From NCBI GenBank assembly GCA_039545335.1, contig BCIN01000005.1, positions 1,457,946 to 1,499,165 on the forward strand: a DNA stretch of 41,220 bases. Reading direction: 5' to 3'. The translations under genes and the position numbers were made by a program. The stretch is from Kondoa subrosea (taxonomy: Eukaryota). Shown piece after piece: positions 31,953-41,220 of the stretch (positions are counted from its first letter, which is position 1; each line of letters opens with the position of its first letter). Under the pieces are notes generated by a model. That model had not been told where the DNA came from. It saw nothing but the letters and a program-made list of their open reading frames with translations, and made no database searches.

Positions 31953-33029
31953 CTACAGCTGCCAAGCCATTTCAAGCAGCTCTTCATACTTGAATTCCCT
32001 GCCCGTCTTGCCTTGAAAGTCTGCCAGCAGTCTTCTTTCCTTTGACCTTTCGTTCTTCTCAGCATAGAACCGCTGCAGACGCATGCATAAAAGTTGAGCA
32101 TCGGTTTGAGAGATGAGCTGTCCAGATCCTGAATCACTTGCTGTGATTTCACCACGAAGCAGAACGATACCATGCGAAATGGCAAGATCAGTGTAATGTG
32201 TTAGAATGAGGGCTGGTTGAGCAAAAGTCCCGTGGCTCTTGTACGATGCTAAAGAAGTAAAGAGAACAGTAGTCGTTTCTGGCGTGCTTGCCGGCATGGC
32301 TGAAGGAGAAGGAACGAATGCCCATTCGAGAAAGATGTTTTCCGCTCCAGTTGTTCCGTCAGATGTTTCTCGAGGCAGAGGAAGGATGAAGCGCAGATTC
32401 TCGCGAGCTATTGCGGTCATTCGCCTGTAGGTTTCGACGGGGATGACGGCGCCTAGTTTCGTTGTTGATTTGGCTGAAGCATGGTAAGCTTTCCAAAGGG
32501 CAGAGATCTCCTCGGCTGAAGGTGCAGGATGCCTTGTGAGAAGCTTCTGTAGGTCTACGATGTCCGAAAGAGGCTATAGATACCTTGAGCTCGGCTGAAA
32601 CTGGAGAGCGGACTGCTGACCTTGATGCCGCTCTTGCTCTTCGCTTGATCGATCCCGCTCGGCAATGAAGGAGCTACAACAGCAGAAGGTATCTGTTGCA
32701 GAGATGAATTGCTTGATAGCTTGGGAGCCGGATTGAATGGCTTGATTGGTTTCACTTTTTCAGCTTGACGAGCCTTGTCCTTCAACGTCTGCAAGTCTAC
32801 TCCTTTCCTGGCGTCCAGATGAACAAGAACTCAAGATAAATATGAAATTCACTCACGCCTTTGCCGCAGCCTCCAGCGCCTGCCCATACTTCTGTTCATA
32901 CTGTTGCCGTTTTTGAGCTATCCTTTCCCGTGAACCTATCAATGCCTCTGGCACGTCAGTGGTCAAACATCGGAAGCTGCTGCATCTCTTGCAGGATAGA
33001 AGTGGTCGATATAACAGGCTTGTGATCAT
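31953..33029 (-). CDS. ATP11: Mitochondrial F1-ATPase assembly chaperone Atp11
   Basis: EISALWKAYH..LGAVIPVETY..FILPLPR..FLEW..TVLFTSLASYK..QPALILTHYTDL..GIVLLRGEI..DAQLL..LQRFY. Presequence-like start MITSLLYRPLLSCKR. Confidence 0.92.
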
Positions 33030-34190
33030 CGTGTCTTGACAACCCGCTGATTGGCTTCAAGCTACAAGAGGTGGCTTTCTGCAACTTGCTTACAGATGAG
33101 CAGAGTCCGCAACAGTTAAGCATGATCATGAAATCATCTACACAAATAAATAACTCTCGCTTGCTACTAAGACTTCCGCTGCCTTGCTCAAGCTTGAATT
33201 CACTCTCCACTCTGCCTTCCAGCTACTACAATGATCGAATCCAGCTCGCCCTTTGCTTCTAAGCTTGCGACTTACTCCTACTGATAGCTTTGGCTCGAGA
33301 GAAAAGCACTGCTCGAGACGGAAGACTGCTTGCTGCTGCCAGGGCCTTGACTGAACTACACCGATTTGCCCTTTTACTGTTGACTGCTCTACTTGCGCGA
33401 CTGCTTTCACGACTTTTCTCGGAAGACTTGAAGACTCTACTCGCTTACACTCTACTCTTCAAAGCTTGCTGACGGGCAGCTCGCGCTTTTCTTTCCCTTT
33501 CTGCCTGACTGATCAAAGATGCTTGCTGTCAGCTTCTTCTGCTCTCAGGTCTACTGCTACCGATCAAGATCAGACTGACAAGGAGCTCTACGGAAGCTGA
33601 GACACAAGACTCTGAACTCAAGCTCTATCCGGCTTTCATCTCTACCTTTTGCAAAAACATCTCCTCACCGGTTTCTGCTCTGCTATTTCGACAGACTATC
33701 TTATGCTCAGCTCTGGCTTACTCCCGCTCGCTCGAGCGCGGCACTTGACTGAAGCTGAGCACTGAAAGCTACACCTCTTGTTTGACAAGCTGCGACGCAC
33801 TTTCTTGCTGCTTTACCACTTGCTACTTCGCNATTTGATTTGACGCACAGAAGATAGCTTTCAGCTAGACTTTCTTCTGTCTTTGCAGGCTCGACTTTGA
33901 CCTGCTACTTTGTGTGTAACATCTTGAAGCTGCGTTTCGGTCGATGACGAACTTGAAGGCTCGGCGCTTCCAAGCAACAGCAACTGCAGGACACAAATGA
34001 AGACTGGCTAGAGCGAAGGTCTTACTAGTCATAGGACTTTGTTGCTTTTTTCCAAGCTTTTGCAAAGGAAGAGTTGAAGTATGAGAGGTAAAATGCGAGC
34101 GTGATCTACAGGTGTGCTGGAAGCTGAGTCTTGTATCAGAGGAAGATAGTTGAGTTTGAAGCTGGAGGTGAGTATCTCAGGGAGATAGTT

Positions 34191-34249
34191 GGATTGTATC
34201 GAAACTAGTTGCAAGGTAGTTTCGCTAATGCTTCTTCAGTCGATAATCC
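34191..34249 (-). ncRNA. Type I hammerhead ribozyme (PLE-associated type)
   Basis: Minus strand: GGAUU-AUCGA [CUGAAGA A] GC-AUUA-GC [GAAA] CUA-CCUUGCAAC-UAG [UU^] UCGAU-AC-AAUCC. Full catalytic core, 10-bp stem I with an AC bulge, 2-bp stem II, short stem III, GUU cleavage triplet. Confidence 0.8.
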
Positions 34250-35049
34250 GAAAGACAATTGAGATGAAAAGACTCTCAAGCAAGTTTCTGAGCCTTAAGT
34301 ATGCGACATTGCAAAATATTGTTATTCTATTGTGCTCTGGACACGTGCAGTATAAGCTCATAAACAGCCTGTTTGCTGCTATGAATACTCTGAATAACAT
34401 CTGTAGTCCCATTGAAGAGCCAGCTATGTTTTTTGCTGTGAAGTCAGTGACTCTCTTCCTGTATTGACGGTGTGGTCTCAGGGATCAATGTAATAGCTAT
34501 GTGTGTAATGACTTCATTGTACTGTGTCTGCTCTCATGAGGCAATAGCTCTGTTCAAAGCAGATTGCTCGAATTCTTGTTTGCACTCGAACCGTCATGTC
34601 TCGTGAATACCTTGACTGCAAGTAGTCTGTATTGCTTCAAGATGGATTATACCTGACATGTAGAGTCATTTCCTCGAGTCTCCGGCTTTATGAGCTCTTG
34701 AACTTTGAGAGAAACTTTGGGTTGTGTAAAAAGTGATGGAAGGGTGTAATATGAAGCTGCTCTGGCCAGATCGTGACAAGCTCTGATGCGCACATCAGTA
34801 TCAGATCAGGTAAGGAGTTATTGTGTTGAAAGATGTCAACCTGACATCTCCCACTCCTTGGACAGTCTCCACTAGCTGTTTGCTCGTCTTTGATGGAGTC
34901 AACGCGTAAGAACCTCCTTTGCGCGATGTATGCTTCCTTCATCATGTCCTATTAGCGAACTCTGATGATCTCTGTGAGACAGCATTATATCTTTTGAACA
35001 GCCGCTATGTTCAGGTTGTTCTATATTCCAGTGGACTTCAATAAGGAAA

Positions 35050-35800
35050 GCAGCCTTCTACTCAGATCAAAGTTCCTATGCGTACATGGGTGAACGAGAG
35101 AAGATTCAGAAGTAATTGCGATTCATTACTTCCGTGAGTTCGCTTTCCGCGTTCTCGTGTGCTTGGCTTATCTGGTTCTGCTCCTCGTCAGGATCAACAC
35201 AGAACGTTGCTATACTGGAATATTCGATTGCAGATCTATAGTTCTTGCTCTATTGATGTTCAACCTATGGTCAATATGTTTGGCAATCTTTGGTTATTAT
35301 CACTTTCAACTTTCTCTAGTCGCTATTACCTTCTACACCTACGTAGAAGACGCTTGGAAGATCCACATATGAAGTTCCTTGTTGTTATGTGATGGAATGG
35401 ACTTGCGTTCTGATGAACTGCAATGAATTCGTGAGTTTCTCTCATATCACTATTAAGAGTACAAGTCTAAGGCTTAAATGTGTGATATCAGGTACTGCTC
35501 ATTCACTCGTATGCATCTTTGTGAAGGTTGTTGCAGGATTACTTATCAGTTTCTCCTGGACCAATTCAGGCTGGCAAGAACTGTTCGTGGATTTGGTTCA
35601 TGCAAAGGTCTCCTTCAAGTCTATTCTTCGACCTATTAGAGCGTGCGTTTTTGCTCTATTGGGGTCTTTGTCGCTGAGCTGACGTTTTTATGACTGCTTA
35701 GCTCAAGCAGTGAAACAATGAACTTGATCGCTATTGTAGGTGTCTTAATGGAGTTAGCTCCTTCAGCTGATCATCTTCATTGTATCGATGGCTAGGTGAT
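35050..35800 (+). pseudogene. Degenerate intron-containing gene remnant, identity unknown
   Basis: Three well-formed plus-strand introns (35134-35191, 35431-35491, 35643-35701; the last has a GCTGAC branch site). No stop-free spliced frame found. Confidence 0.35.
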
Positions 35801-36437
35801 ATCTCTGGTCATATCTCCTGCTATGTCTCGTATTCAATTACAGAAATATGGATTGGTTCTGCTAGAATACGATTTATGACAGGCGTAAAGGCGATAATAG
35901 GTCAGTTCAGCGGCTTCCAGGTTATGAACGTCGATTTTAATGGAGCTGGATAGTTATATCTCTCAGGTTTGCACCGCCTGGTTCCTGTGATCGAGCGTGC
36001 GCTGAATCCCTATGCTTCTATAGGGTAGATCTGGTTGCTGGGTCAAGCTATCATGACTGAATAAGATGACTTAAGTACAAGAGTAGGGCGGGAACCGAAA
36101 CATCAAGTAAGTAAGACCTTTTTACTTCTTATTCAGGATAGTTTGCTCAAGCTTGTCTATAGCTGGGCCTATTATTCATATCATCTGGCAGTACTGCTAT
36201 TCAGCAATGGGTGAGTCACCTCTTTGATATTGTCAGATAGGTTAGTCTTATGGTCCTTCTTCATCGTTAGAGAGAGTCCGTTAGAGAGAGAGTCTTTAAT
36301 AGGAGGGCTTTTACTATGGAAAGTTATGAGGAGTAATTCAATGTGTTAACAAGTGTTATAGTAGTGTTATGTAATGTATTATGCTAGACAACAGCCAATG
36401 TATATAATGCGATGTGACTTGTCACTTGTCAACCACT

Positions 36438-37397
36438 TTACTCTTGCTGCAGATTGTCTAGCTTCGCCATTATATCTTTATGCCCAGTACTCAGATGCAT
36501 AAAGCATCTCCAGCCATGTCCCATCTGGTCTAGCACCTTGGCTTTATGAATCTTATCAAATTTCTTCGACTTGCAAAGATTGCATTCGTCACCTTGCTTC
36601 CCGTACCAGTTTGGCCAGCGTGCATTGTTTGGTTGATTGATCAGATGTACGTTCTCATCTGTGATTCGCAAGCCTTTGTGCTGATTCAAGCGGCTTCTCC
36701 AGACCTTTTGCTCTTGAACAGAGAATTGATCTTTGCTGTTTGCCTGATAGAACGAACGCTTTCTAGTAGCAGTAGCATTGGTCATGTCTTTCAAAGGTGT
36801 GTCCTCGAGCTTTCCCTCCTTGGTCATAGTTGAGAATATGTCCAAGCAGGCTTCTGTGTCTGCTAAAGCTGAGTGAGCATTCTTTAGCTCTTTACCGGTA
36901 TAGTACATGAGAGCTGTGCTCAAATTTCTTTTGATACAGTCCTTCTGAAAGCTTTGGAACAGATCTGTAATGATGCAAGAATCGATGTTGTGCGATACTT
37001 TGCTTCTGTTCATTTCTGCTCTCAGGAGAGGTAAGTCAAAAGCTTCAATGTTGTACCCTACTAGATTGCAGTCTCTGAAGACAGGTACTAGTTGTTGGGC
37101 TATTGATTTGAAGCTTGGGCATTGCTTCACGTCGTGATTTGTGATTCTATGAATCTTAGTGCTTTCTTCAGGTATGTTCACCTGTGGATTGAAGCGTATC
37201 GTTTTAGTCTGACGTTTCCCATTAGGGTGCAATTGAATTACTGTAGGTTCTACTATCCTGTCTTTCTGACAATCTAATCCTGTTGTTTCTAGATCAAAGA
37301 TGACTGTTCGTCTCTTGATTTGGAGATTATGTCTGGCATTCTTAAGCTTTATTCGTTCTAAGACTTCTGTTTTGGCAAGATCTTTATGCTTGGTCAA
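36438..37397 (-). CDS. DEDDh (DnaQ / Pol III epsilon-like) 3'-5' exonuclease with a Cys/His-rich C-terminal extension
   Basis: ExoI VIFDLETTGL..DRIVE, ExoII LVGYNIEAFDLPLL, ExoIII AHSALADTEAC. Tail ECNLCK..H..C..H..H. No AUG upstream of ExoI in this frame, so the true start is probably in ORF 37394-37591. Confidence 0.9.
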   Translation of the reverse strand: MTKHKDLAKTEVLERIKLKNARHNLQIKRRTVIFDLETTGLDCQKDRIVEPTVIQLHPNGKRQTKTIRFNPQVNIPEESTKIHRITNHDVKQCPSFKSIAQQLVPVFRDCNLVGYNIEAFDLPLLRAEMNRSKVSHNIDSCIITDLFQSFQKDCIKRNLSTALMYYTGKELKNAHSALADTEACLDIFSTMTKEGKLEDTPLKDMTNATATRKRSFYQANSKDQFSVQEQKVWRSRLNQHKGLRITDENVHLINQPNNARWPNWYGKQGDECNLCKSKKFDKIHKAKVLDQMGHGWRCFMHLSTGHKDIMAKLDNLQQE

Positions 37398-37686
37398 GTT
37401 TGGAACAAGGTCTTTTCACTTTGGCTCGGTTCAGTGCATGCATACAGCGGAGCTGCAAGGTGTGCTGTGAGCTCTAGACTCTGGGGCTGTTTCTGATTCT
37501 CTTCTTTCAATAGTGTATATGTTTTCTCCTTCCAGGCTGTGAGCCTTTCTTCAAACAATCCTTTAATCATTGATGTCCTGATAATGATCATCAGATTGAT
37601 TGATTATCAAGGTGTGTGTTTATATAGTGTCATGTTTTTGTTGTCTGGTTTACATTAATATGAGCTTATCTTTCTAGTACGATGTA

Positions 37687-40377
37687 TTACAATCCCTTTA
37701 GCTTTCGCGCGGTAAGTATTCTACGGTTCAGTTTTGGAGGTAGCGAAACACACATAGTGATCTTTTCTTTGGATAAGAAGCTAGGTATGTTTGGTTCTTT
37801 GGCTATGGCCTCTGAGAATTGGTCCAAAGCCTTTCTGACTTCTTTAGTATCTATAGCAGGATTCTGTTGGAGATGGAAGAGTAAAGGTATGTCCTTTATC
37901 TTTTCCTTAGGTTCTAGATATGCTGCTCGTCTCGCATAGTCGACACCTGAAAGCGCTTTGGAAATGAATTTGTCAGAGTAGCCTCTGCTCTTCAGTCTTT
38001 CTCTGAATAAGACTAGTAAGCTTTCGTAGTCTTCTCTGCATGAGTTCGTTCTAACGTATCTTATAGCTTCGCCTTTAATGAAGGCTGCCTTCATTGCATC
38101 GTTGTGATAGGACTTTGCTGGCAGGTAAGAATATCTGTTCATTGGCTTTTGATATGTCCTGATGTCTAGCTTTCCTTCTTTTCGGAATCTTTTGCCTGTA
38201 CTAATCTCTAGATCAAGCATGATAGCTCTGTCCTTGGAGATATCAGAGGTGAGTTTGATAGTCTTCTCGAGTGCATTTAGTTCCTTGAAGAACTGTTGTA
38301 CTTGCTCGTGAGTGCATATAAAGAGAGCAAATATATCATCTACAAAGCGTCTGTATAGTTTTAATAGTCCGCTCTTTTGCCATTTTTCGACAAGTGCCTT
38401 TTCAACCTCTTCCATGAACAGATTCGCCAGATTTACAGCGCAAGGAGTGCCCATGGCGGTGCCTCCCTTTTGTCTATATACCTTGCCTAAGAAGATGTTG
38501 TAGTTGCTTTGCATTGTTATCCTCAAGGCTTCACAAAGAAATCTCAATCTATTAGAGTCGTATCCTTCTTCCTGGAGTCTAGCAGCAATGAGACTTATAG
38601 CTCTATCTGTTGGTATGTTTGGGTACATTGCTTCTATATCAGCTGTCGCTAACCATAGGTCTGCATTGCGTTCTAGCGTTGTAGCTAATTGGCTGTCATG
38701 TTCAATAATGCCAATCAACTGGCTGCTGTCTCTAAGACATATTGATGATCTCTTCACATACGGCGCAAGTTCTACATCGATCCACTGGGAGAGTGCGTAA
38801 GTAGACCATCCGCAAGATGGTGTTATAGGTCTGCTTGCTATCTTTGGAGGTTTGTGGATTTTTGCCAGTATGTAAAAGCGAATGAGCTGATCTGGAGTAT
38901 CCTTTGTTATCCAGGCTCTTTCTTCTTCTGTTAGTTCCTTATAGGAATCGACAAGTCTCGAAATTGATTTTCTTACATTGAACAGTATGACATCCTGGGG
39001 TAGGTCTATTTGTTCGTAAGTGCTCTCATCTTGAAGATGTTTATGGCATTCGCTGATGTACCATGTAGTATCTACTGCTGTATATCCTAAGTTTTTGTCA
39101 GCAGCAATGATGAGAATTTCGTCATCGAGTAGCAGCTTTTCTAAAGCTTGATGGCTAGCAATGGGTAGGTTTCTCTCCTCCTGTTTAGTTTCAGGCAGTT
39201 TACGTAGTGCCTTGCGTAGGCAGTTTAACTGGGTCTCTACGAAGCTGTCTTGCGGTTCTGGATGGAAAGACGATCTTTTCCTCCATCTCGAGGGCGGAAT
39301 GATCATGTCCTCAACCTCTGCTTCTTATTCGGGTGAGTTATACTCTACGTGAAACATTTGACGAAGTCTGATCATGCGTTTAAAGCGCTGGAATCCGCTT
39401 TCAAGTGAGCTTTTATCTCTTCTTGGTATATCAATGAATCTTAGCCCCATGGCTAGAGCTTCTTTCTCCAGATCTGTGAGTTTCCTAGTAGTCAGGTCAT
39501 TGACTTGTATGTCTTTGACTCCTAGTGTCAATAGGTTATTTCTCGCTTTGGTCTCTTCGACTGTGTAAGTCTTCTTTGCTCCTCTGCGTCCTCGTCCTCT
39601 ACGTTTGGAAGAAATAGTACTGATAGCATTGTCCGTAGAATTACTACTACAAGGGGCTGTGAACTCTATGGTCTGCCCCTCCCTCTGCCTCTGCCTCCTC
39701 TGAATGTTGGGGTTTGAGAGTGATGGTGAGTCTTGGCTTTCTTGTGAGTTCCGTCGTTCTGACGATGGTGATTCTCCTTTCTCTTCGAAGGACCAGCAAT
39801 CTAATAGTGATTTAGCTGGGTTGTGTGTTTGTGAAACCGAATGGCATACTGGAGCGCTATGTCTCAAGGCAAGTTCTTCCTTTGCCTTGTTGACCCTCTT
39901 CTCGAAGCTTTCTGATTCCAACTTCCAGGCAGTATCTGCTTCCTTCAAGGCTATTTCCTTTACGATATTGGCTTCCCCTTGCAACATCAAGAAGACTGCT
40001 TCTATGATTCCATCGATCTCGCTATCCCAAGTATCTGCTAGGCTTGCATCTACCAACCTTTTGCTTTCAATGACGGATTTGGCTTTCTTGTAGGTTACTT
40101 GAATGAAGTTTCCTGAAAGAATGTCGTTGATCTGCTTTTCTAGTTGCTCAGCACTGTGGCTGCAGATGATGTGCATGCGGGCTCTCTGGTATGTGGTCCA
40201 TAATTGAGCTGCTTGTTGGTCCAATTCTTCTCCTAGGCTCTTGATACCTGCATCTGGAGCGAAGATTGGAATAGAGGAGAGAACGAAATTTCCTTCTGTA
40301 GAGGATTGGTAGCGTTCTTTCCAGTGTGGCATACTAGAATGAGACTGTAGCAATAGATTAGTAAACATAGGCGACAT
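37687..40377 (-). pseudogene. Penelope-like reverse transcriptase (ORF1-RT frame, about 896 codons, one in-frame TAA at 39325-39327)
   Basis: PLE N-terminal motif NDLTTRKLT..E..AL..GLRF, ADKNLG, FYILAKIHK..SRPI, DIEAMYPNIP, GTAMGTPCAVNLANLFM, YRRFVDDIF, LDL, and thumb YQKPMNRYSYLP..SYH..FIKGEAIRY..RLKSRGY. ORFs 39325-40377 and 37687-39306 are in the same frame. No GIY-YIG found. Confidence 0.92.
39666..40377 (-). CDS. Predicted spliced ORF1 protein (helical/coiled-coil with a basic RGG tail)
   Basis: Removing intron 39801-39849 (GTATGC...GCTAAA...TTAG, 49 nt) gives ...KAKEELALRHSAP|IAGPSKRKENHHRQNDGTHKKAKTHHHSQTPTFRGGRGRGRGRP* (TAG 39666-39668). Confidence 0.65.
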
Positions 40378-41220
40378 TAGAGATAATGTTAGCCTACTCT
40401 TGACTTTTGCTCACTTCTCAATCCAAATACGATTATTTCCACATGACTGCAGACATAGGTGTATGTCCTACAATCCATTGTTCAGATTTCGTCTCAAAGG
40501 CTCTCGAGAGTGCCCTCTTAGATGACTGTGACTTACCAGAAAGGAATAAGGTAAAGGGTATGACCAACCAGCAGATACATCCACTGCATCACAAATGACT
40601 GATCAGTAATGGAACAAGATAGCAATGTGCGCGTATAGCTCACAAGTGCTTCAAGGCATGCGTGGAGGTAAGCTTCTCTTCAATCAAACCGCTTTCAAAC
40701 CACCTTCTTCTCCTCAATCATTCATTCTCACTGTTATCCTCATTCTCCGTTTCTTTGCTCTATCGAAGAAGTATCCGTGCAACACGATCATTACGTCCAA
40801 GCCTGTTCACAGCGTTCAGCATCAGTGCCTTACAACCTGTCAGTAAGTGAAGCCCGTACTGGAGAGCTNTCAATCTGAGCGTTGCAATCAGCTGAGTACT
40901 ATGTGTGTGAAGCAGTATAACGCACTTGAAGATACACATGACACTCAAGCAAGCAGAATAAAGTAATAGAAGCAANGGGANCAAGTGACATTGAGATTGA
41001 GTATNTGAGCGAGTGAACGGCATNANTNTCCAACGCGANCAGGTGNAGTAGCCATAATCCGAACGTTTCCAAAGTAGCAACAATCAATCCATATAGCTAT
41101 AGCTCATTGAGCGCCTTTGCCTGGAGCTGGATTTCTCTGCTTCTTTCTCATTCGTATTCCTGCTGTCTATTCACCAGCGGCGGGTATGTTCACATCCTCA
41201 ATAAGCAGAGGGTATAAAAA

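Follow-up and report, generated by a model that had tools for sequence, protein, structure and literature searches.

A Penelope-like element of a fungus that pairs an endonuclease-free reverse transcriptase with a conserved DEDDh exonuclease

Introduction

What does a gene for a 3′-5′ exonuclease do directly behind the reverse transcriptase (RT) of a Penelope-like element (PLE) that carries no endonuclease? The question was raised by a 41,220-nucleotide (nt) stretch of DNA, here referred to as the window, in which the initial annotation had noted a PLE-type RT without an endonuclease, a DEDDh exonuclease downstream of it, and a hammerhead 2.2 kb further. All three observations were confirmed on the minus strand. 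In the best explanation of the locus, positions 34.07-40.4 kb hold one copy, inactivated recently, of an endonuclease-deficient PLE of a Pucciniomycotina fungus, and its exonuclease would serve to trim 3′ ends for priming; we give this reading, mechanism included, a probability of about 0.6. That the element is a PLE and that its RT and exonuclease are linked is, taken jointly, highly probable. A fungal origin had also been proposed, and a host DnaJ gene closest to those of Pucciniomycotina yeasts bears this out. The host is a yeast-like basidiomycete.

Results

The element encodes a PLE-type RT and no recognizable endonuclease

The RT occupies positions 37687..39324 of the minus strand (545 amino acids [aa] and a TAA stop) and was identified from its open reading frame (ORF), Pfam, related RTs, and phylogenetic trees. 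Pfam matched RVT_1 alone, with an E value of 1.1e-6 and 28.9 bits, slightly below the cut-off of 29.6. Among 80 relatives recovered by an RT profile search, 18 loci have the canonical PLE architecture, in which the RT carries a GIY-YIG domain at its C-terminus; furthermore, one protein match (P0043) bears PF01541, and RTs of its type and the window RT fall into one tree. The motif DKNLGY (39082-39099, minus strand) and the catalytic DD of motif C (38335-38340, minus strand) were located by alignment. Residues D76, K77, N78, L79, G80, and Y81 were invariant in 18 sequences, as were Q392, K393, and H407 together with the subsequent conserved block in the thumb region after RT7. The GIY-YIG relatives have DKG where the window RT has DKN (the names of the N-terminal DKG-type motif and of the thumb region follow Craig 2021 and PMC13159263).

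The ORF proper (37690-39324) terminates in LKGL, directly followed by the TAA at 37687-37689, and RT relatives of 660-940 aa share this C-terminal end position. No Pfam match to GIY-YIG, HNH, APE, or integrase was found in the three main ORFs, and the six-frame check for GIY-YIG and HNH that had been proposed earlier returned no endonuclease in 89 segments of at least 40 aa across positions 33000-41220. The ORF end and these empty searches uphold the description of a PLE-type RT that stops at LKGL without a GIY-YIG domain. With no endonuclease in any of these frames and an RT akin to GIY-YIG-fused RTs, the element is likewise an endonuclease-less PLE, as claimed.

Upstream of the RT, the N-terminal part of an ORF1-RT polyprotein lies at 39328..40377 on the minus strand (stop-to-stop frame 39328-40410, first ATG at 40377). 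No Pfam family matched this part. Its last ~70 residues are conserved: a tblastn search with residues 290-359 matched 17 loci, directly upstream of their RT. ORF1 and RT are divided by an in-frame TAA (39325..39327, minus strand), which has the same letters in contigs from the sample; since relatives read through this point as one continuous ORF, the TAA represents a premature stop in the window copy.

A likeness of the RT to Naiad and Chlamys elements, suggested in the initial annotation, found no support: the N-terminal GIY-YIG domain is missing, and the motif reads DKN instead of DKA or DK with another residue. Naiads have DKA and an IFD insert of ~20 aa between RT motifs A and B, and Chlamys elements have DK plus a variable residue (Craig et al. 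2021). The spacing between motifs A and B was 59-60 aa in 12 rows of the exonuclease-bearing clade described below and 59-61 aa in 11 rows of canonical GIY-YIG relatives; because the two are equal, the RTs of the clade give no sign of such an insert. A Coprina element has been reported to have DKN (PMC13159263). The statement that some Chlamys elements carry DEDD exonucleases found no backing: Craig et al. (2021) use neither "Exonuclease" nor "DEDD" in their main text (0 occurrences).

The exonuclease is of the DEDDh type with a predicted epsilon-like fold

Downstream of the RT, a DEDDh 3′-5′ exonuclease frame of 325 aa plus stop lies at 36438..37415 on the minus strand (ORF 36441-37415) and was assigned by Pfam to PF00929 (RNase_T; 3.2e-22). 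It retains the full set of five DEDDh residues, namely DxE in Exo I, D in Exo II, and Hx4D in Exo III, its catalytic codons on the minus strand being D41 (37293-37295), E43 (37287-37289), D127 (37035-37037), H181 (36873-36875), and D186 (36858-36860). Between the RT stop and the opening of the stop-to-stop frame lie 272 nt, in agreement with the ~290 nt given at first; the accompanying claim that the frame is complete failed on comparison with the closest relative, P0066 (55% identity). The N-terminus of P0066 matches a segment in another frame (37397..37591, minus strand) whose ATG at 37589-37591 sits 95 nt past the RT stop, and we therefore place the gene start at this ATG and a frameshift near 37394-37415. 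The window copy is thus defective in two places, with ORF1 separated from the RT and the exonuclease severed from its N-terminus.

The body of the element is otherwise one piece, and a second variant was absent from the contigs of one sample. The outer limits of the copy are best approximated by 34070..40361 (strand not assigned), the part that one unbranched contig covers in sequencing runs containing the window; beyond both positions, contigs split into repeated or variant sequence. The stretch was present in no RNA run. No direct or terminal repeats (pseudo-LTRs) flanking the window element were found.

In the predicted structure of the exonuclease, residues 31-200 reach a pLDDT of 80-95. 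The best structural matches were the Pol III epsilon proofreading subunit (TM 0.83-0.84 on target), DnaQ domains, the DinG exonuclease, and TREX1/2, with RNase T likewise among the matches, and the sequence matches were the same kinds of protein. The predicted fold points to a DNA-type, epsilon-like enzyme. A DEDDh fold as such does not discriminate DNA from RNA substrates. It is quite improbable that the exonuclease acts on RNA, maturing the element transcript (for instance by shortening a 3′ tail or the hammerhead product) and so exposing the correct 3′ region of the template to the RT. PF00929 is the RNase T family, the exonuclease of one relative (L002) weakly matches the exoribonuclease family PF16473 (24.7 bits, below the cut-off), and the A-run found before telomere-like junctions in relatives (see below) would fit a tailed RNA; in addition, passages of the Terminon papers suggest 3′-end processing of RNAs or single-stranded DNA for the DEDDy ORFs of those elements (PMC5408684, PMC6431247). 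However, the nearest sequence relatives of the window exonuclease are bacterial ExoX-like or epsilon-like proteins, and its top structural matches are DNA enzymes.

Those bacterial relatives, Bacteroidales proteins of 253-286 aa, share the epsilon fold, the five catalytic residues, and 38-48% identity over the domain. In contrast to them, the element proteins have an N-terminal extension of ~110 residues and sit in a eukaryotic retroelement, and the window exonuclease ends in a Cys/His-rich tail common only to P0066. The bacterial matches pair PF00929 with PF20600, and no such pairing is recorded for P0066.

The exonuclease is a conserved component of a clade of PLEs

The proposed search for conserved linkage, conducted by tblastn, revealed a same-strand exonuclease downstream of the RT in 24 of 80 metagenomic RT-related loci, all of which rank among the closest RT relatives. 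One exonuclease frame covers the tblastn match in 23 of the 24, and two of these frames (L003 and L004) exceed the contig ends. The first exonuclease ATG lies 2-104 nt past the RT stop in 20 loci; in two others, the exonuclease ORF and the RT ORF share 118 nt, and in one the distance is 316 nt. The window copy, with its gap of 95 nt, agrees with these 24 relatives in position, strand, and spacing.

Phylogenetic analysis united the window RT, P0001-4, 22 exonuclease-linked loci, and loci L019, L020, and L059 in one clade with an SH-aLRT support of 99 (82 rows, LG+G4); support for the exonuclease clade was 100 under LG+C20 (33 rows). RT copies without an exonuclease and copies with a GIY-YIG domain had been named as the findings that would speak against the linkage. 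The exonuclease is missing in just 1 of 25 informative clade members, and 18 of 18 GIY-YIG loci fall in a separate clade. In one member, L019, the place of the exonuclease is taken by an accessory ORF with an F-box-like domain, and an additional ORF of this kind occurs in some other members of the clade. The catalytic D, E, D, H, and D were invariant in 39 exonuclease sequences, and the ratio dN/dS was 0.08-0.26 for the exonuclease in 8 of 8 pairs and 0.10-0.18 for the RT. Purifying selection acts on the exonuclease, including its catalytic residues; the linkage is beyond chance, and the element contains the exonuclease as an integral and conserved component. The unit of the clade consists of an ORF1-RT polyprotein, a separate ORF for a DnaQ/epsilon-like DEDDh 3′-5′ exonuclease, and ~2 kb of noncoding DNA; a type I hammerhead like those of fungal PLEs also belongs to it. 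A literature search yielded no description of an endonuclease-less PLE RT with a DEDDh exonuclease ORF, in keeping with the suggestion of a possibly undescribed lineage, and the clade of exonuclease-bearing PLEs is apparently both widespread and undescribed.

It is very unlikely that the window exonuclease is an unrelated neighbor gene or a separate bacterial capture, independent of the exonuclease of the metagenomic clade. Such a capture would account for an identity of 38-48% to Bacteroidales proteins against 20-25% to the other clade exonucleases, for the Cys/His tail seen only in the window and P0066, and for an N-terminal extension that is unmatched by a profile of the metagenomic clade (L-clade). 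However, within the clade the exonuclease diverges faster than the RT (e.g., 47% versus 71% identity), and an exonuclease identity of 20-25% is therefore expected at 35-37% RT identity. In BLAST alignments, the matches of P0066 to L021, L024, and L014 begin 33-85 residues before the exonuclease domain, and the L-clade profile recovers P0066 at 1.3e-24, ahead of the ~250-aa proteins among the matches listed; both results speak for a common origin of the ORF. The shared position, strand, and spacing also argue against both a neighbor gene and a separate capture, and chance adjacency is at odds with the single compositional domain and the single unbranched contig that run through RT, exonuclease, and hammerhead.

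A role outside integration chemistry, as a counter-defense or accessory factor that degrades small silencing RNAs or stray nucleic acids, for example, is highly unlikely. DEDDh enzymes that trim small RNAs exist, some members carry the F-box-like accessory ORF, and the position behind the RT can hold accessory genes, since L019 has its F-box-like ORF there. Nevertheless, retention in 24 of 25 members across deep divergence (RT identity of 35-40%) fits a core function better.

A putative hammerhead ribozyme lies beyond a noncoding stretch

The exonuclease is followed by a 2.2-kb noncoding stretch (34249..36437, minus strand), which contains no long sense ORF and is of low GC content and A-rich on the sense strand, with a make-up like that of the coding part; relatives have a comparable, conserved noncoding stretch of ~1.7 kb. 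At its end, 2.19 kb past the exonuclease stop, lies a type I hammerhead-like motif (34194..34248, minus strand), recognized by a descriptor, a covariance model, and its likeness to the published fungal PLE variant. It is composed of helix I with 6 bp (10 with a bulge), a CUGAAGA core with an extra A, helix II with 2 bp and a tetraloop, GAA, and helix III with 4 bp, and cleavage is predicted between 34203 and 34202.

Rfam returned no family for the site at the gathering threshold, nor any at E<=10 over 8.2 kb or 201 nt, and the bare core pattern occurs at chance rate (5 found versus 5.96 expected). The site is the sole match in the window to a helix-aware descriptor, which matched 10 of 300 shuffles, and a covariance model trained on four other loci, with the window excluded, ranked it first (22 bits, E value of 7.8e-5; runner-up at 11.4 bits). 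The hammerhead noted originally thus stands as a putative ribozyme. A total of 19 loci contain 21 sites with related motifs that show compensatory helix changes, each on the RT strand (the motif parser resolved 20 of the 21). The motif matches a variant known from fungal PLEs (Cervera and de la Pena 2014, PMC4209133); unlike the published examples, it has a helix II of only 2 bp, its self-cleavage is predicted, and it lies 2.2 kb after the exonuclease, outside any recognizable terminal repeat. In 13 loci of the clade, the hammerhead is positioned 0.6-1.2 kb upstream of the RT ORF and not after the exonuclease, which makes the 3′ boundary of the window copy and the role of its hammerhead uncertain. 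One relative (L079) has hammerheads flanking the ORF on either side.

Telomere-like junctions and a possible role in priming

Several relatives are joined to telomere-like sequence. One locus (L012) opens with ~17 CCCTAAA repeats, followed by the element in the 5′-to-3′ direction, and an A-run succeeded by a CCCTAAA-like run lies ~1.7 kb past the exonuclease stop in L002, L009, L011, L012, L015, L017, and L029. In the subclade of L002, telomere repeats are followed by head-to-tail arrays of the element, and every 3′ junction bears short telomere-like runs. Exact overlaps of contig ends in relatives indicate tandem units, and the inferred unit lengths of relatives are 7.8-11.8 kb. No CCCTAA-type telomere run was found near either end of the window element; its repeated flanks and its closeness to the end of the window suggest a location near a chromosome end.

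A role of the exonuclease in trimming 3′ ends for endonuclease-free priming is the one that we tentatively favor, at slightly below even odds. The element RNA would be copied from an exposed chromosomal 3′-OH at an eroded telomere or a break, without nicking, as in Athena and Coprina. The exonuclease would act on this DNA 3′ end and remove unpaired or overhanging nucleotides until the end pairs with the template, whereupon the RT would extend it. Telomerase cleaves primers, and DnaQ domains trim the 3′ overhangs of prespacers in CRISPR adaptation; by analogy, both would be parallels. A broader scenario, possible though doubtful, is that an old and widespread clade of endonuclease-less PLEs replaced nicking by end processing, having captured a bacterial-type DnaQ exonuclease once, which was then kept by selection and either prepares ends and breaks as primers or proofreads cDNA. 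If true, these elements would come closer than any other free-living analogue to a telomerase-plus-nuclease machine, and they would be the first group of retroelements to have an RT and a 3′-5′ exonuclease as core enzymes.

Alternatively, the exonuclease might be a proofreading partner of the RT that excises misincorporated nucleotides from the cDNA and enables faithful copying of long units, an unlikely role that is conceived by analogy with epsilon, which proofreads for Pol III, and ExoN, which does so for coronavirus polymerases. The epsilon proofreading subunit as top structural match, the agreeing sequence matches, the tight placement of the gene behind the RT, the length of the units, and a purifying selection as strong as that on the RT would all suit proofreading. 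However, many other retroelements of comparable length do without it, and the exonuclease occurs in 0 of 18 GIY-YIG-bearing relatives of similar ORF size; the association with endonuclease loss and with telomeric ends favors a role in priming.

Comparison with other known systems

Coprina elements, which occur in fungi and in some other eukaryotes, are PLEs that lack an endonuclease and are associated with telomeres. They share with the window element a fungal host, a PLE RT with a long N-terminal extension, the lack of GIY-YIG, and the DKN motif (PMC13159263), as well as a hammerhead of the fungal PLE variant (PMC4209133); in relatives of the window element, as in Coprina, the ORFs are oriented with the telomere behind them, and short telomere repeats separate the element from the chromosome. 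By description, Coprina is set apart by a single ORF (PMC13159263) or, in Coprina-1_Alen, a coiled-coil ORF1 plus an RT ORF, and the descriptions consulted mention no exonuclease, whereas the window clade has a conserved DEDDh ORF after the RT.

The Athena elements and Terminons of bdelloid rotifers are, according to parts of the two papers describing them, telomeric PLEs with an endonuclease-deficient RT, head-to-tail arrays, hammerheads, and accessory ORFs that include a 3′-5′ exonuclease of the DEDD superfamily (PMC5408684, PMC6431247). The initial annotation was thus right to ascribe DEDD-family exonucleases to Terminons, but the same passages describe these as DEDDy, RNase D-like enzymes, confined to a subset of the families of giant multi-ORF elements, which reach up to 40 kb. 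The exonuclease of the window clade, by contrast, is DEDDh (PF00929, epsilon/ExoX-like), immediately follows the RT in compact units, and has been retained by nearly all members; the window host is a fungus, and the relatives are metagenomic. A Terminon-type DEDDy assignment of the window exonuclease was rejected on its match to PF00929 and the H in its third motif.

Eukaryotic mobile elements with a DEDDh (DnaQ) accessory exonuclease are also known in KolobokD (PMC9587614). Unlike the window element, these are DDE-transposase DNA transposons of animals, with a TREX/ERI1-like exonuclease, and are unrelated to PLEs.

Results

The reverse transcriptase is of the Penelope type and lacks an endonuclease

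The reverse transcriptase (RT) of the element lies on the minus strand of the window (37690-39324), comprises 545 amino acids and ends with LKGL followed by a TAA codon. Upstream of it and in the same frame, we found a 361-amino-acid stop-to-stop ORF (ORF1; 39328-40410, minus strand; first ATG at 40377), which is followed by an in-frame TAA (39325-39327, minus strand). Pfam returned only a borderline RVT_1 match for the RT. A protein search with 8000 candidates scored revealed 65 relatives at E ≤ 1e-3, the best of which were 40 to 41% identical. The nearest relatives are single ORFs of 660 to 940 amino acids that read through the position of the window TAA and have their C terminus at the same position as the window RT. 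Precomputed Pfam assignments on RT relatives include PF28514 and PF26215. A metagenome scan with the RT alignment yielded 320 confirmed stretches, of which the best 80 (loci with L numbers) were analyzed. Eighteen of the more distant loci among these best 80 of 320 carry a C-terminal GIY-YIG domain on the RT, the canonical architecture of endonuclease-bearing Penelope-like elements (PLEs), and the window RT is therefore of the PLE type.

No GIY-YIG, HNH, APE or integrase domain was detected by Pfam in the three main ORFs or in 89 six-frame segments of positions 33000-41220, in agreement with the initial annotation, which had described the element as endonuclease-less. In the RT alignment, neither the DKNLGY motif nor the catalytic aspartates vary. 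The spacing between motifs A and B is 59 to 60 amino acids, compared with 59 to 61 in the GIY-YIG relatives, which carry DKG at the site where the exonuclease-linked RTs described below have DKN. Naiads are described as having DKA and an insert of about 20 amino acids, and an N-terminal GIY-YIG as common to Naiads and Chlamys (Craig et al. 2021), and DKN has been reported from a Coprina element (PMC13159263). As the window RT has neither the Naiad insert nor DKA nor an N-terminal GIY-YIG, the likeness to Naiad/Chlamys perceived earlier is unsupported.

The window copy carries at least two lesions

The exonuclease frame of 325 amino acids (36441-37415, minus strand) matches RNase_T (PF00929; 3.2e-22) and contains the DxE, D and Hx4D residues. 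Its closest protein, P0066 (401 amino acids), is 55% identical over 91% of the query. The first ~110 residues of P0066 match a short upstream frame, which starts with an ATG (37589-37591) 95 nt past the RT stop and runs to 37397 on the minus strand. This match exposes a frameshift near 37394-37415 between the short frame, encoding the N-terminal part, and the 325-amino-acid frame. Hence, the exonuclease ORF itself was correctly recognized in the initial annotation, but it is not complete, its N terminus being cut off by the frameshift.

Among public sequencing runs, only two contained this stretch; both are DNA runs from the same sample, from which the assembly may also derive, and no RNA run was listed. 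In the contigs of both runs, positions 34070/34575-40361 form one unbranched piece with 0 to 2 differences, and the contigs turn deeper or variant on either side of it. Both the TAA and the frameshift are present in these contigs, for which no variant is listed from 34463 to 40521. Because the frames are open apart from these two disabling lesions, inactivation of the window copy looks recent. Programmed read-through or frameshifting at the TAA and at the break in the exonuclease frame would be a possible explanation for the same interruptions, but the frames of the relatives are continuous at both positions.

The element is flanked by eukaryotic genes, which encode ATP11, a dual-specificity phosphatase and a chaperone of the DnaJ/Ydj1 type. 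Proteins of Pucciniomycotina yeasts (Rhodosporidiobolus, Sporobolomyces, Rhodotorula and Cyphobasidiales) resemble the DnaJ fragment most closely (69 to 77% identity), and no named species closer to it than these yeasts was found. The element was therefore correctly called fungal. The G+C content of the 34- to 41-kb region is 0.40 to 0.45 versus about 0.44 to 0.51 in the remaining window, and the sense strand is A-rich from ~33 to 40 kb. Scattered Ns, which are low-quality or gap bases, occur at 40870-41050, just upstream of the 5′ end of the element and about 170 to 350 bases from the end of the window.

RT and exonuclease are linked across a well-supported clade

When the 80 loci (the best 80 of 320) were searched by tblastn with the window exonuclease and P0066, 24 gave a match, always on the same strand and downstream of the RT; the remaining 56 yielded none. 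Since three pairs are near duplicates (L005/L010, L013/L014 and L015/L029), about 21 exonuclease-linked loci are independent. One exonuclease frame spans the match in 23 of the 24 loci; the frames of L003 and L004 reach contig ends, that of L009 is shortened at the N terminus and that of L001 is interrupted. The first ATG of the exonuclease is located 2 to 104 nt past the RT stop in 20 loci and 316 nt away in one; in two others, the exonuclease and RT ORFs share 118 nt. The RT-exonuclease linkage proposed from the window is thus real.

A quick tree search under LG+G4 with 82 RT rows united the window, its protein relatives P0001 to P0004, 22 exonuclease-linked loci and the loci L019, L020 and L059 in one clade (SH-aLRT of 99), here referred to as the exo-clade, and placed all GIY-YIG rows in a separate clade with a support of 97. 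The same exo-clade received a support of 100 in a 33-row tree under LG+C20+F+G4. Two loci were outside the tree owing to the 400-amino-acid cut-off for RT frames: L038 (397 amino acids) and L001, which has no single RT frame of that length. The RTs of L020 and L059 run to the contig ends, making these loci uninformative on the exonuclease, and L019 is the only informative member of the exo-clade truly devoid of it.

None of the five catalytic residues varies among 39 exonuclease sequences. The dN/dS ratio of the exonuclease was 0.08 to 0.26 in all eight pairs, with 0.10 to 0.18 for the RT. A profile of 15 clade exonucleases retrieved 34 representative clusters at E ≤ 1e-30 from 1.84 billion proteins, and P0066 (1.3e-24) ranked above proteins of about 250 amino acids. 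A complex prediction for the RT core and the exonuclease of L002 scored 0.01.

Some relatives carry a third ORF of about 455 to 470 amino acids with an F-box-like domain (PF12937), which is absent from the window, where no homologue was found. It is located behind the exonuclease (L007, 5189-6547; L013, 5187-6560; L014, 5182-6555; L038, 3053-4468), and in L019 (3798-5162) directly behind the RT, in the place of the exonuclease. The PF12937 match was above the cut-off in L019 (26.1 bits) and below it in L007 and L038 (about 19 bits). Of 31 other ORFs scanned in the long loci, 30 contained no Pfam family.

The exonuclease is epsilon-like and was probably captured once

A structure model of the window exonuclease, built with 21 aligned sequences, was confident for residues 31 to 200 (pLDDT of 80 to 95) and poor beyond. 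Its best structural match was the proofreading subunit epsilon of Pol III (TM of 0.83 to 0.84, normalized to the target), with DnaQ domains, the DinG exonuclease and TREX1/2 as further top matches and RNase T lower in the ranking. Apart from P0066, the exonuclease relatives among the matches listed have 224 to 286 amino acids, and the named ones are from Bacteroidales; thirteen such proteins were 38 to 48% identical to the window exonuclease and P0066 over the exonuclease domain. These data suggest a bacterial source of the module. The window domain (36858-37295, minus strand) is closer to Bacteroidales proteins of 253 to 286 amino acids (38 to 48%) than to the exonucleases of related elements.

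The window exonuclease shares 20 to 25% identity with those of the metagenomic clade members, and the latter share 22 to 30% with Bacteroidales proteins. The module may have been captured a second time in the fungal lineage. However, we favor a single ancient capture, which would have been followed by faster change in the metagenomic lineage, because the exonuclease diverges faster than the RT within the clade (e.g., 47% versus 71% identity) and because BLAST alignments of P0066 to L021, L024 and L014 reach 33 to 85 residues upstream of the domain. A scan of viral contigs with the exonuclease alignment revealed one unrelated locus only (26% identity).

The C-terminal third of the window exonuclease ORF (36441-36800, minus strand) is a Cys/His-rich tail with a CxxC ... 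CxxH ... H pattern. It is strongly conserved with P0066, whereas the other element exonucleases all lack it and have a basic tail of the KRK type at their C terminus. The tail had no match in Pfam or Atlas and was poorly modeled; it may form a small zinc-binding domain.

The hammerhead motif is of a kind known from fungal PLEs

The exonuclease is followed by a 2.19-kb noncoding stretch (minus strand) without a long sense ORF or a Pfam match and then by a hammerhead-like motif (34194-34248, minus strand). Rfam detected no hammerhead in the window or in 40 loci. A simple descriptor found canonical minimal PLE hammerheads, with a long helix II and a 1-bp helix III, in both endonuclease-less and endonuclease-bearing relatives, at 2706-2751 in L025, 4493-4538 in L026 and 2014-2075 in L045. 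As the Rfam gathering thresholds miss those of L025 and L026 (L045 was outside the Rfam set), we did not count the Rfam result against the window motif. The bare core pattern occurred in the window at chance level. A descriptor that additionally required three helices had a single hit across the 41 kb of the window, on the sense strand of the element. Of 300 dinucleotide shuffles, 10 gave a hit with the same descriptor, a generous figure given that the thresholds were set after the site had been seen. The minimum-energy fold of the 71-nt region was unremarkable (z of -1.45; 18 of 200 shuffles folded as well).

The unusual layout of the window motif recurs on the RT strand in L048, L061, L076 and L072: a CUGANGA core is followed by an extra A, a 2-bp helix II capped by a tetraloop, the GAAA segment, a helix III of greater length, UU and an open helix I. 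In the first three of these loci, the motif lies 300 to 400 nt past the RT stop and about 80 to 120 nt ahead of the next ORF. A covariance model built from these four loci alone ranked the window site first (22 bits; E of 7.8e-5, with rough calibration and filters off), the next best hit scoring 11.4 bits, which bore out the hammerhead of the initial annotation. A related motif is present in 13 exo-clade loci, where an A lies on either side of a 2- to 4-bp helix II, and the 20 parsed sites display many compensatory changes in helices I and III (at least nine helix I and at least ten helix III pairings). Cervera and de la Pena (2014) describe type I hammerheads in fungal telomere-associated PLEs, in which helix III is large, the size of helices I and II varies and one base at the 5′ end of stem II stays unpaired; for an example from Serpula lacrymans, they showed monomeric self-cleavage. 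The features match this description, and the window motif is therefore a predicted ribozyme of a known PLE hammerhead kind.

In the exo-clade loci, the hammerhead precedes the RT ORF by 0.6 to 1.2 kb, whereas in the window it follows the exonuclease. No second hammerhead or terminal repeat was visible upstream of ORF1, where the alignment of 40880-41150, a stretch with Ns, to the hammerhead region was unconvincing. The true 3′ end of the window copy would therefore lie somewhere between 34203 and about 34070, and the hammerhead could stem from a lost neighboring copy.

Relatives adjoin telomere-like repeats

The window offered no direct sign of a telomere: no CCCTAA-type run was found near the element, and the element has no terminal repeats. 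Its 5′ end points to the window end, about 0.8 kb off, and both flanks are repeated in the genome: 33500-34075 on the 3′ side is 5 to 8 times deeper, and 40361-40860 on the 5′ side exists in two to three diverged variants. This setting is compatible with a subtelomeric site and with the orientation that Coprina-1_Alen was reported to have. At 33939, 34070 and 40425, loose contig ends enter short TTAGCGAG-like repeats.

Among the relatives, L012 opens with an array of about 17 CCCTAAA units, behind which the element runs in the 5′ to 3′ direction. An A-run and a short CCCTAAA-like run occur about 1.7 kb past the exonuclease stop in seven loci (L002, L009, L011, L012, L015, L017 and L029), and L010 has a 12-nt C-rich run only. 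In L012, the same sequence follows the CCCTAAA-like run and the 5′ telomere array. The contig start and end overlap exactly (45 to 220 nt) in L002, L007, L013, L015, L018, L024 and L079, which indicates head-to-tail arrays or circular assembly paths with predicted units of about 7.8 to 11.8 kb. L079 has a hammerhead on either side of the RT ORF.

The ~1.7-kb noncoding stretch that separates the exonuclease stop from the telomere-like junction (L002, 5085-6747) has matching stretches in L005, L009 to L012, L015, L017, L018, L022 and L029. It is 72 to 85% identical between loci, at least as conserved as the RT ORF and always more conserved than the exonuclease ORF, and the synonymous divergence of the same locus pairs is 0.5 to 1.9. 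It contains repeated hairpin-like modules and no ORF over about 108 amino acids common to the loci. By its conservation, the stretch looks like a constrained RNA or DNA element.

Discussion

The RTs of PLEs form the sister group of telomerase, and the unit described here bears on the question of how endonuclease-less PLEs obtain and prepare their primers. The family combines an RT with intact catalytic motifs and no endonuclease, a DEDDh exonuclease under selection with an epsilon-like fold, and a hammerhead; telomere-end arrays occur in the relatives. Reverse transcription would start at an exposed 3′ end of the chromosome, the mode of priming put forward for Athena and Coprina (Craig et al. 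2021; discussion of PMC13159263), and the exonuclease would make this end usable as a primer by trimming it. Proofreading, maturation of RNA 3′ ends and counter-defence are rival readings of its role, and the DEDDh fold alone does not decide among these and trimming.

Of the known systems, Coprina and Athena/Terminons come nearest. Coprina elements are fungal and endonuclease-deficient as well, but their descriptions give either a single ORF or an RT ORF plus a coiled-coil ORF1 (PMC13159263). In the endonuclease-deficient Athena/Terminons, some families are described as carrying a DEDDy RNase D-like exonuclease among many ORFs (PMC5408684; PMC6431247). Recruitment of an exonuclease by endonuclease-deficient PLEs is thus not a rotifer peculiarity. 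In the literature searched, we found no description of compact PLE units in which nearly all members keep a DEDDh exonuclease, and the architecture may possibly have been catalogued before.

Conserved over deep divergence, with invariant catalytic residues and located behind telomere repeats in part of the clade, the compact RT and exonuclease unit offers a defined two-protein system for end-primed reverse transcription. The exonuclease can also serve as a marker gene for annotating elements of this clade, which standard annotation presents as a weak RVT_1 match beside a "DNA polymerase III epsilon-like" gene.
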